From Escherichia phage Turkey3, in sequence record PQ471515.1: DNA of 64,000 bases; one strand, 5' to 3'. Position numbers and translations under genes: made by a program. Below are positions 2,297 through 21,531 of this stretch, piece by piece; position 1 is the stretch's first letter, and every line of letters begins with the position of its first letter. Below the pieces are notes generated by a model. That model had not been told where the DNA came from. It saw only the letters and a program-made list of their open reading frames with translations, and did not search any database.

Positions 2297-3035
2297 AAAA
2301 TTTTATTTTGTTTTTTCCAATAGTTCCCCTACCGCGTGGGGATAGTTTCCCCGCAGTATCTGGAGTTAGATTTTTCTGAATCTGGAATCATTATCTTATA
2401 AACTGGGGGCAATGTCAACGGCCTGGACGGATATTTTTAAAAATTTTTTCAGTACTGAATTTTGGGCGTAACTATGCACCCGGTGGGCTTGAGTCTTTCT
2501 CGACTTGATGGAACTATTATACAGTACTGAAAAAATAAAGCAATACCCTGGAAGCAAAAAAGTTTTAATTAATTTGCTTGCTATCCTGGGCCGGACTATG
2601 GTACTATATTTCAGTACTGAGAAAGTGCGTTTACCTGCTAGGGTGCGGGAGTGTATCCTTTTTTTATATCTTGAATTTTGGGCGTAATTCCGCACCCTCT
2701 GGGGTTTCCGCTTTCTCGCGTCTATGTAGTAATTATACGCTTTTTCAGGATCAAGTCAATACCTAAAAACAAAATAATTGAAAATAATTTAACGCGTTTA
2801 AACGGCCCGTAAAGCCCTGGAATGATTGGAATGGTGCAAATGTATAGCTTAGGTGTATTAATGCGTTAGAATGCGTCTGAGGCCGTTTTATGGGGTGTAG
2901 TAGTGATTTGGTTGATTCAGTACTGAATAATAGTACTACTATATAGAAAGATAGTTCCCCTGGATGGTTGCAGTACTGAATGATAGTTCCCCTATATAGA
3001 AAGAAAACTATTTTAAAAGTATTTGTAGAAAGTAC

Positions 3036-3063
3036 TTGCAAACTATGTTTAAAGGCGTATAAT
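3036..3063 (+). promoter_or_regulatory. early promoter cassette (TTGCAA-16-TATAAT)
   Basis: TTGCAA 3036-3041, TATAAT 3058-3063, upstream A-rich/AGTACT element. Confidence 0.65.
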
Positions 3064-3077
3064 GTTTTACATCGAGA

Positions 3078-3094
3078 GCGGGAACACTTCCTGC
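3078..3094 (+). promoter_or_regulatory. conserved 5'-leader hairpin (GCGGGAA-loop-TTCCTGC)
   Basis: Inverted repeat ~15 nt downstream of -10; same GGGGAA/TTCCCC hairpin recurs after most early promoters. Confidence 0.5.
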
Positions 3095-3118
3095 TACACA
3101 TTACGAGAGATTAAAACG

Positions 3119-3481
3119 ATGGCGACTCAAATCACTAAAATTATTGCTAACCTGGTTAACTTTCGCGACGAGATGAAAGATCTTCCGGCAGAAACGGTAA
3201 AAATTCACATTGCAGCTTATCGGGAACTTATTGCAATGTTACCTCTTAAGCGTGAACAATACGCCGCAACCGTGATGCTTGATGCGATGATCCATAAGAT
3301 GATCGCCAGTGATTTAACGATGGCTTATCAGTACATGGGCGAATTGTTCGCGGTGTATAGTAAACCAGTACCAGGAATGGAAAGTACAGAAGTATTACAC
3401 GGTTTAAATTTAAAACAAGATGCATGGGATAATATGCCTCGTTTCCTGGTATGGGCTGACAGTGGCAAAATTTACGAATAA
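3119..3481 (+). CDS. hypothetical early protein
   Basis: ATG after promoter+hairpin; track ORF 3062 start lies inside promoter so internal ATG chosen. Confidence 0.6.
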   Translation: MATQITKIIANLVNFRDEMKDLPAETVKIHIAAYRELIAMLPLKREQYAATVMLDAMIHKMIASDLTMAYQYMGELFAVYSKPVPGMESTEVLHGLNLKQDAWDNMPRFLVWADSGKIYE

Positions 3482-3495
3482 GTTTAATAAAGTAC

Positions 3496-3523
3496 TTGCA
3501 AACTATGTTTAATGGCGTATAAT
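3496..3523 (+). promoter_or_regulatory. early promoter cassette
   Basis: TTGCAA 3496, TATAAT 3518; hairpin GTGGGGAAtagTTCCCCAC 3536-3554. Confidence 0.65.
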
Positions 3524-3574
3524 GTTTTACATCAGGTGGGGAATAGTTCCCCACTATATAAGAGGATTAAAAAA

Positions 3575-3814
3575 ATGGCTAAATCAAAAATGTTCTTAGG
3601 TCACAAAAACAAAACTCATTGGAATGTAAGCCTTTGGATTAATAACGATGAGTCATTGTACCGGTTGGCTCAGGACTTTATTAACGATAGCACTAATCGC
3701 AATGATGCGGCCCGTCATATGATGTTATTTTTAGAACAGACTGGACAAGATAAAACACCGGACGGATTCAAATATAGCACTACTGCGATCCGTGCTGCAA
3801 TGGTTGGAATGTAA
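3575..3814 (+). CDS. hypothetical early protein (paralog of 5618..5857)
   Basis: RBS AGAGGA; shares GHKNKTHWNVSLWINN...PDGFKYSTTAIRAAMVGM with 5618 gene. Confidence 0.7.
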   Translation: MAKSKMFLGHKNKTHWNVSLWINNDESLYRLAQDFINDSTNRNDAARHMMLFLEQTGQDKTPDGFKYSTTAIRAAMVGM

Positions 3815-3899
3815 TAGAATTTATTTAAAGTACTATCATTTTTTGCGATAGTACTTTAAAATAGTGTTTTATTCATACACCAACGATAAGGGCAACAGC

Positions 3900-4166
3900 A
3901 TGAATATTAAGTATTTTGCGACGCGTGAACAAGCTCGGATCGCCGCACGCCAGGACGGGGTAACGTTTAAAGATATGGGCGTACAATCGGAACGTGGTAA
4001 ACGTTGGGCCATTGTAAAGCGTAGTACCGCCAGATCATTACAGTACTGGTTAGCGGCCTTAAAAAGTCCCGATAGTGTATCGCGACGAGTGGTAGAAATA
4101 AAGCTCGACCGAAAGGGCAACCGCGTGACCGTGTACCGTACTAAAAAGATTGCAGTACTTGAATAA
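3900..4166 (+). CDS. hypothetical early protein (paralog of 16705..17100)
   Basis: Shares YFATREQARIAARQDG...DRKGNRVTVY with 16705 gene; start approximate. Confidence 0.6.
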   Translation: MNIKYFATREQARIAARQDGVTFKDMGVQSERGKRWAIVKRSTARSLQYWLAALKSPDSVSRRVVEIKLDRKGNRVTVYRTKKIAVLE

Positions 4167-4173
4167 AAAGTAC

Positions 4174-4201
4174 TTGCAAACTATGTTTAATGGCGTATAA
4201 T
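4174..4201 (+). promoter_or_regulatory. early promoter cassette
   Basis: TTGCAA 4174, TATAAT 4196; hairpin 4216-4233. Confidence 0.65.
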
Positions 4202-4253
4202 GTTTTACATCGAGAGCGGGAACTCTTCCCGCCTATAACCTGGAGTAATAAAA

Positions 4254-19596: not shown

Positions 19597-19683
19597 AAAG
19601 TACTTGCATTGTAGTTAGATTAACGTATAATGTTTTATATCGAGAGGGGGAAATGGTTTCCCCTCAAGTCCAGGAGATACACC

Positions 19684-19947
19684 ATGAACACTATCGAAAT
19701 CACTATCAATGCACACGTATACGACAACGTAGTACTGCAAACTACTATGACCGCTAATGATACCAGTACTTTGCGGAATACTGTTATTAGTGCCGTATGT
19801 GCTGCAATCGGTGATGTTGCCCTGGAAAATGCAGAACATATCAACAACGGTTTCACTATGTGCAAACGTGATAACGCAAAACATATCATCGTGGAAGGTT
19901 ACGGCGGTGTAGAATTTAATGTTTATATGAAAAAAGTACTTGCATAA
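19684..19947 (+). CDS. hypothetical early protein
   Basis: Promoter+hairpin, RBS CAGGAG. Confidence 0.6.
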   Translation: MNTIEITINAHVYDNVVLQTTMTANDTSTLRNTVISAVCAAIGDVALENAEHINNGFTMCKRDNAKHIIVEGYGGVEFNVYMKKVLA

Positions 19948-20014
19948 TAACTAAAACAAAGTATAATGTTTTGCATAGGGGGAGATATCCTCCCCCACTA
20001 AAAGGAGTAATAAA

Positions 20015-20239
20015 ATGGCTAACTTTGATGAACTGATGCGGGAAGTAGCTAACCTGGCAGAAGAGAAGAAATCATTCGATTCTATCTATAACACCGCTCA
20101 CCGTGATTCAGTACTGGCATGTAACCAGGATCAAAAAGATGAACTAATCGCCACATATCATGAAGCATGGAAGTACTACCGACAATGGGAGAAAGAAGAA
20201 AGCGAGTCTACCATCGAAGGTATCAATAATCTAATCTAA
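20015..20239 (+). CDS. acidic hypothetical protein
   Basis: Promoter+hairpin, RBS AAGGAG. Confidence 0.6.
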   Translation: MANFDELMREVANLAEEKKSFDSIYNTAHRDSVLACNQDQKDELIATYHEAWKYYRQWEKEESESTIEGINNLI

Positions 20240-20313
20240 AGTTTTATTTCAGTACTATTGACATAGCTTGATAGTACTGATGTAATAACTTTACTAACTA
20301 AAGGGGAAACATA

Positions 20314-20571
20314 ATGGAGCAGTTCACACAATATCGGGTAAATCCTCAAGCTATGGCCTACGTAGAAGACCATAAAACGTTACCAGTACTGCAACCAGTT
20401 AAAGGCCGTATCTATCGTGGCCTTGCCTGGGATACGGCCCAGGATGGATATAAAACCGTCGCCGTGGGGATGTATTGCGGGAATGGTGAATGGTTTGATC
20501 CTAGCAATCCGATTGCACTTGACAGTACTGAAAAAATGAAATGGGCCGACTACATCGAAGATATTTCATAA
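20314..20571 (+). CDS. hypothetical early protein
   Basis: Promoter TTGACA..(TGTAAT) upstream; RBS AGGGGAAAC. Confidence 0.55.
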   Translation: MEQFTQYRVNPQAMAYVEDHKTLPVLQPVKGRIYRGLAWDTAQDGYKTVAVGMYCGNGEWFDPSNPIALDSTEKMKWADYIEDIS

Positions 20572-20661
20572 AAACTATTTGACAGTACTAACCAGTAATG
20601 TATAATGTTTTACATAGAGCGGGGGAATAGTTCTCCCGCCAATAGTTTGGAGTTAAACATT

Positions 20662-20862
20662 ATGTCTATCGCTATCGCCCTGGTTGAAGTACTGAAAGAA
20701 GCTAAAGCCAACCTTATCGATGTACAGATTAAGGAATTGCAAAACGGCTTAATCGGCTGTACTTGTACCGCTGGTGGAGCGGCAGACTATCGAGAACACG
20801 AATCACTCGAATCACTGGTTCGGTATCTTACCATGATCGTTGATGATTGGAGAATCATCTAA
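20662..20862 (+). CDS. hypothetical early protein
   Basis: Promoter+hairpin, RBS GGAG. Confidence 0.55.
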   Translation: MSIAIALVEVLKEAKANLIDVQIKELQNGLIGCTCTAGGAADYREHESLESLVRYLTMIVDDWRII

Positions 20863-20885
20863 CAAAAAAAAGAATAAAAAAGGGA

Positions 20886-20914
20886 TTGACTCCGGTCAGT
20901 CCCTTTGCTATTAT
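20886..20914 (+). promoter_or_regulatory. repeated terminator/promoter module, copy 4
   Basis: GGGATTGACtccgGTCAGTCCC hairpin overlapping TTGACT; TATTAT -10; CCCACAGGGTGCATAGGTGTATCT downstream. Confidence 0.5.
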
Positions 20915-21109
20915 ATACGCATAGACAAAAACTAGCCCACAGGGTGCATAGGTGTATCTAAAATATATAGTTAATAACGGTGAGTAACTATCTGCTGGTG
21001 GAGTGAAAACTATTAATAAAAAAACTATTGACAAAGTATATCAGTACTGCAATAATGTATCTCGTAGGGCGGCAATGGTGCGACGGCCCACAAAGTTAGG
21101 AGCTTCAAA

Positions 21110-21442
21110 ATGACTACTTCAATCGCTATCGTTAAAGCTTTCATCCGTACCAATGTTTCTTCTGTATTCATCGACGGACTGGATCGGGAAGTAGAATACT
21201 CAATCATTATCGCACAAACGGTAAACGGTGCTCGGTACATCCTGAATGATAGTGAAGCAAATCACTACTACTTCACTAAAGCCACTGGCTTTAAACGCAT
21301 CGATGCTGATGTAGTATACGCTAAGATGAATAAGCTGGTAGACAAGATTAACGCGAAAGGTACTATCGATTTACAGTACTGGACCGAAACCGATCCAGAA
21401 TATGGATCACACCGCTACCTGAATCCAGGTATCAAAATGTAA
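21110..21442 (+). CDS. hypothetical early protein
   Basis: RBS AGGAG. Confidence 0.6.
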   Translation: MTTSIAIVKAFIRTNVSSVFIDGLDREVEYSIIIAQTVNGARYILNDSEANHYYFTKATGFKRIDADVVYAKMNKLVDKINAKGTIDLQYWTETDPEYGSHRYLNPGIKM

Positions 21443-21449
21443 AAAGTAC

Positions 21450-21477
21450 TTGCATAGTACTTAGATTCATGTATAAT
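21450..21477 (+). promoter_or_regulatory. early promoter cassette
   Basis: TTGCAT 21450, TATAAT 21472. Confidence 0.6.
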
Positions 21478-21531
21478 GTTTTACATAGAGAGGGGGAAAT
21501 GGTTCTCCCTCCTAAATTAAGGAGTTTTATC

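Follow-up and report, generated by a model that had tools for sequence, protein, structure and literature searches.

The stretch of DNA analyzed here, hereafter the window, comprises 64,000 nucleotides of Escherichia phage Turkey3 (PQ471515.1), which megablast matches place in Asteriusvirus, among the jumbo coliphages of the 121Q/PBECO4 type (myophages of ~350-380 kb). Between positions 3,022 and 21,534 it harbors 27 copies of a unit of ~95 bp, all on the + strand, in which a promoter is followed by a transcribed hairpin and a ribosome-binding site (RBS), typically ahead of a single small gene. In jumbo phages of the Rak2/121Q group, small genes without known function number in the hundreds, and their expression and exchange are largely undescribed; a search of the literature on Asteriusvirus and Rak2-like phages found no paper describing this cassette. 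A sequence-only reading of the window had claimed more than 25 copies of a promoter and 5′ hairpin at individual small genes, and the repeat family is indeed real. The same reading placed the cassettes before most genes, which was too generous, as full cassettes stand upstream of about half of the ~51 + strand open reading frames (ORFs) in the interval.

A promoter and hairpin cassette ahead of small genes

The cassette zone can be placed within the phage genome by comparison with Escherichia phage vB_Ec-M-J, the closest relative of Turkey3, which is 100% identical to the window over a 106-bp cassette segment and ~96-98% identical over the cassette zone. In the vB_Ec-M-J record, bases 1-21,525 are annotated as a direct terminal repeat, and these align to window positions ~1,395-22,361, implying that all of the cassettes lie inside the repeat. 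The ORFs behind the cassettes encode 47-133 amino acids (aa). Matches to 48 PHROG families among the 52 ORFs of the region support their being real genes, and Pfam searches of these 52 early ORFs (13675-13932, 13996-14352, and others within 3-22 kb) gave matches to DksA/TraR (C4 zinc finger), GNAT (acetyltransferase), and a ParE-like domain (toxin), together with two DUF7249 proteins, while the remainder belong to PHROG families without an assigned function.

Searching the window for TATAATGTTTTACATCGAG with at most 3 mismatches returned 26 matches, all on the + strand, compared to 0.05 expected. A stricter promoter pattern also identified 26 sites, at 3,036-21,450, 25 of which are followed by a hairpin of 7-9 bp; addition of the copies with -35 elements at 8839 and 14629 gives the total of 27. 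Extraction with a covariance model, as proposed in the sequence-only reading, was performed with a model trained on 25 copies, and confined the family to 3.0-21.6 kb of the 64-kb window, with no copies on the - strand. A scan with the hairpin alone likewise found this hairpin type nearly restricted to the same zone.

The geometry of the cassette is highly regular. The 5′ flank is A-rich or contains AGTAC, the -35 element is TTGCAA, TTGACA, TTGCAT, or TTGCAC (TGGACA at 14629), the -10 element is TATAAT, and the spacer between them is 16 bp in every copy. The hairpin most often begins 12 nt past the end of the -10 element (range 8-14 nt), the interval being occupied by a conserved start region (…TTTACAT…); its stem is 7-9 bp, and 17-25 nt separate its end from the ATG. 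About 10 more genes in the interval have sigma70-type promoters that lack a hairpin. An extended -10 element was considered and rejected because the TG of CAGTACTGTATAAT directly abuts the hexamer. The possibility that an AUG in the loop serves as a start codon was also rejected, since ATG is missing from most loops and the gap from GGAG to ATG would be just 2 nt. The individual copies, compiled from the promoter pattern scan, the geometry table, and the covariance-model matches, are as follows.

3022..3121, + strand, cassette: -35 at 3036, -10 ending at 3063, hairpin 3077-3095 (AGCGGGAA cac TTCCTGCT, one G·U), ATG 3119
3482..3577, + strand, cassette: -35 at 3496, hairpin 3535-3555, ATG 3575; one-gene insertion/deletion (indel) junction relative to vB_Ec-M-J
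4160..4256, + strand, cassette: -35 at 4174, hairpin 4216-4232, ATG 4254
4723..4806, + strand, cassette variant: -35 at 4737, hairpin 4777-4806 with 14-nt loop; no ORF, ~85 nt non-coding, then a promoter at 4855
5525..5620, + strand, cassette: -35 at 5539, hairpin 5579-5599, ATG 5618
6173..6267, + strand, cassette: -35 at 6187, hairpin 6227-6246, ATG 6265
6641..6732, + strand, cassette: -35 at 6655, hairpin 6691-6710, ATG 6730
6958..7053, + strand, cassette: -35 at 6972, hairpin 7013-7031, ATG 7051
8506..8605, + strand, cassette: -35 at 8520, hairpin 8560-8581 (two G·U), ATG 8603
8825..8919, + strand, cassette: -35 at 8839, hairpin 8879-8898, ATG 8917; cassette and gene shared with Vequintavirinae phage A5-4
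10634..10729, + strand, cassette: -35 at 10648, hairpin 10688-10707, ATG 10727
10863..10958, + strand, cassette: -35 at 10877, hairpin 10915-10934, ATG 10956; left end of a gene insertion specific to the window
11202..11296, + strand, cassette: -35 at 11216, hairpin 11256-11275, ATG 11294; right junction of the insertion begun at 10863..10958
11794..11889, + strand, cassette: -35 at 11808, hairpin 11849-11867, ATG 11887
12229..12327, + strand, cassette: -35 at 12243, hairpin 12283-12302, ATG 12325
14342..14434, + strand, cassette: -35 at 14356, hairpin 14396-14414, ATG 14432
14615..14709, + strand, cassette: -35 at 14629 (TGGACA), hairpin 14669-14689, ATG 14707
14913..15008, + strand, cassette: -35 at 14927, hairpin 14967-14985, ATG 15006
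15459..15540, + strand, cassette variant: -35 at 15473, hairpin 15513-15540 with 14-nt loop; no ORF, ~85 nt non-coding, then a promoter at 15589
15915..16016, + strand, cassette: -35 at 15929, hairpin 15971-15990, ATG 16014; one-gene indel junction relative to 121Q and phAPEC6
16186..16288, + strand, cassette: -35 at 16200, hairpin 16242-16260, ATG 16286; opposite junction of the 15915..16016 indel
18732..18830, + strand, cassette: -35 at 18746, hairpin 18786-18807 (one internal G·U), ATG 18828
19039..19138, + strand, cassette: -35 at 19053, hairpin 19093-19111, ATG 19136; one-gene indel junction relative to vB_Ec-M-J
19590..19686, + strand, cassette: -35 at 19604, hairpin 19644-19665, ATG 19684; indel junction relative to 121Q
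19926..20017, + strand, cassette: -35 at 19940, hairpin 19978-19996, ATG 20015; indel junction relative to 121Q
20565..20664, + strand, cassette: -35 at 20579, hairpin 20619-20639 (one internal G·U), ATG 20662
21436..21534, + strand, cassette: -35 at 21450, hairpin 21490-21511, ATG 21532; the downstream gene, 21532-21933, has orthologues behind lineage-specific cassettes of five other phage groups

Base pairing in the transcribed hairpin

Comparison of the copies with one another and with their orthologues indicates that the hairpin is maintained as an RNA structure of the sense strand. In 24 of 25 predicted 5′ untranslated regions (UTRs), the minimum-energy fold consists of the cassette hairpin followed by a mostly open Shine-Dalgarno (SD) sequence, with the SD unpaired at a mean of 0.70; hairpin energies range from -9.2 to -14.5 kcal/mol, with z-scores of -1.4 to -3.7 in the eight UTRs tested. 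A stem search that penalized every mismatch equally found 5-6 internal G·T pairs in the cassette stems and no A·C, and the hairpins are more stable in the sense than in the antisense orientation (mean -12.7 vs -11.2 kcal/mol, p=0.004). This asymmetry and the greater sense stability imply that pairing is strand-specific, as expected for RNA, and, together with compensatory changes, they support selection for pairing on the sense strand. The sequence-only reading is also supported in its account of a repeated module in which promoter, transcribed hairpin, and RBS stand ahead of individual small genes.

Covariation was evaluated in an alignment of 110 copies from the window, 121Q, phAPEC6, K64-1, A5-4, and fHe-Yen9-04, which was fitted to the model and is consequently biased toward the structure. 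In this alignment, double-sided changes occurred at 9/9 pairs (116 cells vs 43.5±5.7 when shuffled), and the covariation score was 0.341, compared to 0.07-0.11 with the partners slid. Among stem changes between orthologues, pairing survived 17 of the 35 that altered one side and 11 of the 15 that altered both, an enrichment. Moreover, hairpins with different stems occupy the same position in K64-1 (GGGAAUGAA/UUCAUUCCC, GGAGAUUCCA/UGGAAUCUCC, and GGGAUACA/UGUAUCCC), Serratia BF (GGGAGGC/GCUUCCC), Acinetobacter ABPH49 (GGGAGGC/GCCUCCC), and A73 (GGGCGGC/GCCGCUC). The loops comprise ~13 sequences of 3-5 nt, plus the two of 14 nt.

Several observations weigh against selection for pairing. Among the 50 stem-pair changes between orthologues, 22 destroy a pair, and arms composed entirely of purines or entirely of pyrimidines can pair nearly whatever the partner. 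For the 25 window copies in an unfitted alignment, covariation was marginal (15 vs 9.6±2.9 cells, 17/500 shuffles). Given this marginal signal, and that the MAFFT alignment of these 25 copies placed the hairpins out of register, we relied on the fitted 110-copy alignment, the unbiased stem search, and the cross-genus orthologues. Counts of A·C from the model-fitted alignment were left unused because errors in register raise these counts at the outer pairs.

Conservation of the hairpin sequence, as distinct from its pairing, had been taken in the sequence-only reading as a sign of a protein or RNA binding site, and this argument was not supported by the comparison. Orthologous cassettes of the window and three Asteriusvirus genomes form 68 pairs, whose divergence was 3.7% in the -35 element, 2.5% in the -10 element, ~8% in the stems, 11.8% in the loops, and 9.7% in the promoter spacer. 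Stem drift is thus similar to that of the spacer, a functionally unconstrained region, leaving the case for sequence-specific binding unsupported; the loops vary, and the stems differ across genera. A search for an RNA-binding protein among the early genes, also suggested in that reading, found no RNA-binding domain with Pfam or PHROGs in the 52 ORFs of the early region, most of which have no assigned function. An Rfam scan of 1-24 kb returned three sub-threshold matches (two Trp-leader, one S15-leader), none at the cassette hairpins. Conservation of the hairpin sequence for a binding partner is, on these comparisons, probably not the case, and the likeness of the hairpins within the window is explained mainly by shared ancestry of the cassettes and their recombination as whole units, because the copies resemble each other in the spacer too.

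Known protein-bound operators, such as those of the boxB/N, RegA, and coat-protein types, are conserved in the loop or bulge, whereas the Turkey3 loops are not. The lambda nut site has a comparable layout, in that boxB is likewise a small hairpin transcribed shortly past an early promoter. However, the boxB loop is conserved and read by the N protein while the Turkey3 loops vary freely, boxB occurs once per long operon rather than once per small gene, and no candidate binding protein was found among the 52 early ORFs of Turkey3.

Gene exchange at cassettes and comparison with PeSLs

The cassettes coincide with sites of gene gain and loss. Relative to vB_Ec-M-J, 121Q, and phAPEC6, 19 of 32 indel breakpoints fall inside cassettes, which cover 18.6% of the interval, although these events are partly non-independent and intergenic sites are favored in any case. 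Three of the four chain junctions with vB_Ec-M-J are gene-sized indels with a cassette copy at each end (3491/3570, 10924/11206, and 19048/19148), while at the fourth, 4898-4964, the two phages differ in length by 63 bp; one junction, at 10924, lies inside a hairpin. The same indel pattern is found relative to 121Q and phAPEC6 (16020/16188, 19654/19931, and others). The alignments overlap by 54-107 bp at the junctions, which we interpret as the footprint of unequal homologous recombination between repeats.

Exchange appears to extend beyond the genus. Vequintavirinae phage A5-4 carries homologues of at least 9 window segments in shuffled order at 68-91% identity, as well as three cassettes with hairpins nearly identical to those of Turkey3. 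In Asteriusvirus, Alcyoneusvirus, Eneladusvirus, Vequintavirinae, and Krischvirus alike, the gene family represented by 21532-21933 is preceded by cassettes of lineage-specific type. Conversely, the window contains, at 21028-21110, one cassette typical of Vequintavirinae, as in A5-4 and A73 (TTGACA-N17-AATAAT, then GTATCTCGTAGGGCGGCAATGG…), suggesting that cassettes may be exchanged in both directions between phage families.

These properties invite comparison with PeSLs, the repeated promoter-early stem-loop units of T4-like phages (RB49/phi1, PST/T4, and nt-1/KVP40), in which the stem-loop precedes the promoter hexamers, lies between them, or overlaps them, and is described as terminating or attenuating transcription from upstream (PMC2839356, PMC4122927). 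In RB49, G-run/C-run stem-loops of PeSLs reduced expression of a downstream lacZ like a strong terminator (PMC2839356). PeSL crossover points were mapped in or beside the stem-loop (PMC2839356). The Turkey3 cassettes resemble PeSLs in being repeated units of ~70-100 bp that combine AT-rich upstream sequence and an early promoter of sigma70-like type with a G-run/C-run stem-loop, SD, and start codon, in clustering among small ORFans in a hyperplastic region, and in lying at insertion, deletion, and replacement junctions of close relatives. They differ in the placement of the stem-loop. A PeSL stem-loop lies upstream of or over the hexamers and is therefore absent from the element's own transcript, while the Turkey3 hairpin begins past the -10 element, in its own 5′ UTR, and lacks a U-tract. 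Additionally, PeSLs occur in T4-like phages, whereas Turkey3 is not in the Straboviridae, and the class definition includes mini-circles excised by recombination between flanking copies. On the basis of geometry and the missing U-run, we rejected membership of the cassettes in the PeSL class.

True composites of terminator and promoter with PeSL geometry do occur in the window, at 11679, 15337, 18615, and 20879 (AAAGGGATTGACTCCGGTCAGTCCCTTT + TATTAT), and form a separate repeat family. In the RB49-like phage JSE, the orthologue of window gene 21532-21933 follows a classical PeSL, whose hairpin overlaps the -10 element, and this PeSL and the Turkey3 cassettes have in common a AAAAAGTA(G/C)TTG flank and a CATCGA start motif. 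It is well supported that the cassette is a PeSL-like mobile regulatory unit in a jumbo-phage terminal repeat with its stem-loop shifted into the 5′ UTR, which takes the PeSL concept outside the T4-like phages, with the hairpin placed differently.

Candidate roles of the hairpin and neighboring elements

The cassette is laid out as an A-rich upstream element, a near-consensus promoter for host sigma70, a conserved start region, the hairpin, an unstructured A-rich SD region, and the ATG. From spacing and the pyrimidine-purine (Y-R) rule, transcription would start at the A of the conserved CAT, presumably as at PN25 of T5. We suggest that host sigma70 RNA polymerase initiates at every cassette as infection begins, and that the hairpin (~-12 kcal/mol), which the predicted 5′ end precedes by ~1-5 nt, forms within the 5′ UTR as it is synthesized. 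Its most probable effect would be to render expression independent of context, by shielding the transcript end, or upon read-through the cistron boundary, from 5′-end-dependent and 3′-exonucleolytic decay, and by preventing the RBS from pairing with whichever ORF sits downstream. On balance, we favor by a modest degree the reading that the unit is a portable σ70 early-expression cassette whose 5′-UTR hairpin stabilizes or insulates the mRNA; while the identity and evolutionary behavior of the cassette are well supported, the early timing of transcription and the biochemical role of the hairpin are inferred.

Established stabilizers provide the nearest parallels for such a role. The E. coli ompA 5′ UTR and the T7 phi10 leader GGGAGACCACAACGGUUUCCC likewise have a short GC-rich hairpin near the 5′ end of the mRNA followed by an open RBS, the phi10 hairpin has the purine-arm/pyrimidine-arm appearance seen in Turkey3, and in both it is structure rather than sequence that is retained. 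The same holds for the cassettes, with their compensatory and G·U changes, differing cross-genus stems, and stem conservation no greater than that of the spacer. The ompA and phi10 hairpins start 0-2 nt from the 5′ end, compared to a predicted 1-5 nt, or 7 nt from the alternative start, in Turkey3. The promoters themselves are reminiscent of the early and pre-early promoters in the T5 terminal repeat, such as PN25, which are also dense, near-consensus, and host-type, have a comparable A/T-rich block upstream and conserved "TTCAT/TACAT" start region, and drive small host-takeover genes in a long direct terminal repeat. The jumbo phage CBB likewise has RpoD-like promoters with UP elements in its presumed early region and terminal repeat (PMC5259590). 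Unlike in Turkey3, no conserved transcribed hairpin has been described for the T5 or CBB promoters. In phage PA5oct, two non-coding RNAs of the terminal repeat are highly transcribed throughout infection.

Some points count against a stabilizing role. At the predicted start, up to ~5 nt are unpaired 5′ of the hairpin in many copies, and ~5 unpaired nt is reportedly borderline for classical protection by a 5′-terminal stem-loop. Also, ~10 nearby promoters function with no hairpin. Since scanning RNase E readily bypasses a simple orthogonal stem-loop (PMC9943677), a role purely as a scanning obstacle is weak, and we downgraded this mechanism. Stems of 8-9 bp are far below the length required for an RNase III site, and a role as such a site was rejected. 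RNase III needs a stem of ~20 bp.

Among the alternatives, a shared RNA operator, in which one phage or host factor reads the G-rich helix on more than 25 early mRNAs and jointly represses, activates, processes, or protects them, for example at an early-to-middle switch, appears unlikely. In its favor, the 5′ arms in the window are without exception G-rich runs of purines and the 3′ arms the complementary pyrimidines, most 5′ arms include GGAG or GAGG, the K64-1 stems begin with GGGRA or GGAGA, and the position of the hairpin is fixed relative to the -10 element and ATG. Furthermore, the 22-nt hairpin GAGGGGGAAauggUUCUCCCUC is identical in Salmonella phage Munch, even though the downstream protein is only 45% identical and the spacer differs. 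Against this stand the near-equal divergence of stems and spacer, loops unconserved in both sequence and length, compensatory changes and unrelated stems in other genera, the lack of an RNA-binding Pfam domain among the 52 early ORFs or an Rfam family at the hairpins, and the many early promoters without a hairpin. We regard as decidedly improbable the more elaborate proposal of a regulon-wide operator, whereby a preformed SD-like/anti-SD-like helix, constantly spaced from both the 5′ end and the RBS of more than 25 early mRNAs, would allow one phage- or host-encoded factor, or the ribosome, to turn the whole early set on or off in concert, with the cassette doubling as an exchange module in Asteriusvirus, Vequintavirinae, and RB49-like phages.

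It is very unlikely that the hairpin functions as a PeSL-type terminator or attenuator that stops or damps read-in from upstream so that each gene is driven by its own promoter alone. Such a role would accord with the lacZ results from RB49, with upstream genes that lack their own terminator ahead of the next cassette, and with similar stems that, followed by a T-run, act as terminators at 6491 and 17123. However, a hairpin 12 nt past the -10 element would halt the cassette's own transcript too, and the region has separate true composites. The 9 nt following the stem are A-rich with 0-4 U, and none of the 27 copies passed a terminator scan that does detect real terminators in the region (6491, 7609, 8340, and 17123), leading us to reject an intrinsic terminator. 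A DNA-level element, either a palindrome at ~+6 to +27 that a dimeric repressor binds as its operator, or a hairpin or cruciform promoting recombination or template switching, with the RNA fold incidental, is highly improbable. While an inverted repeat just past the start is a typical operator position, and recombination junctions fall in cassettes (one of them within a hairpin, as for crossovers in PeSLs; PMC2839356), the G·T vs A·C asymmetry indicates strand-specific pairing, the half-sites are spaced 3 to 5 nt apart, or 14 nt in two copies, and co-vary instead of each holding to a consensus, and ~95 bp of homology suffices for recombination without a hairpin. We consider least probable of all that the hairpin is a neutral passenger, a functionless relic (e.g., of an earlier terminator) that was carried along as the promoter cassette duplicated. 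The similarity of entire cassettes across copies, spacer included, does indicate duplication or gene conversion, and the stem divergence close to that of the spacer and the weak covariation within the window also favor this reading. Nevertheless, the enrichment of pair-preserving changes between orthologues, the presence of same-position hairpins of different sequence in five phage lineages, and the occurrence of internal G·U without A·C all argue against it.

If the cassette is a portable expression unit, the terminal repeat may be viewed as a rack of independent expression slots, each driven by host polymerase and equipped with a standard 5′ UTR. Because the ~95-bp unit is repeated, homologous recombination among copies could insert, delete, or swap small genes one at a time, whether inside the lineage or in exchange with unrelated coliphages. 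The repeated slot would then be a substrate for swapping early genes, probably for host takeover or anti-defense, even across unrelated coliphage families. The cassettes also offer compact natural parts (promoter, insulating 5′ UTR, and RBS) for phage and E. coli engineering.

Several elements related to the cassettes were observed nearby. At 4723-4915, 15459-15650, and 7671-7836, three cassettes precede leaders of ~85-120 nt without an ORF (ACAUCAGGACGGGGA…ACGAAAAACUCCCCUGAU), which may be small RNAs or long regulatory leaders; in the first two, the gene is preceded by a second promoter that lacks a hairpin. Cassette-type hairpins at 5877-5896 and 2336-2354 have no recognizable strong promoter and look like decayed or half cassettes, the former lying behind a degenerate CAGTACTGTAACAAT, 19 nt ahead of the ATG at 5916, and followed by a terminator-like TTTATT.

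A second repeat family has -35 elements at 4518, 11686, 13350, 15344, 18623, and 20886 on the + strand and at 4690, 6621, 2759, and 2543 on the - strand. Each copy has its own sigma70-type promoter, often within a terminator-like hairpin (the true PeSL layout), followed by ~50 nt without an ORF that contain a near-invariant core, A(G/A)CCCAYMGGGTGC…TGTATCTAT, kept in K64-1 and fHe-Yen9-04. The core had no Rfam match and its predicted fold is weak; the family could represent a small RNA or a DNA site. The segment 13347-13666, which holds one copy, is missing from phAPEC6.

The palindrome AGTACT occurs 264 times in the window, with 150 copies in 1-22 kb (7.0 expected) and 114 elsewhere (10.9 expected), and is nearly missing from 22-28 kb and 30-38 kb. 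It is found in the cassette -35 flank (AAAGTACTTGCAA) and spacer (CAGTACTGTATAAT) and also within ORFs, and K64-1 and Yersinia phage fHe-Yen9-04 likewise carry it in their promoter flanks and spacers, at matching positions. Just past the inferred end of the terminal repeat, at 22,460-30,647, lies a tandem family of 25 paralogous + strand ORFs of 58-90 aa, with mostly overlapping stop and start codons and no promoters, one extra member of which is located at 44,579-44,773. Smaller tandem paralogue families are present at 38.7-49.4 kb.

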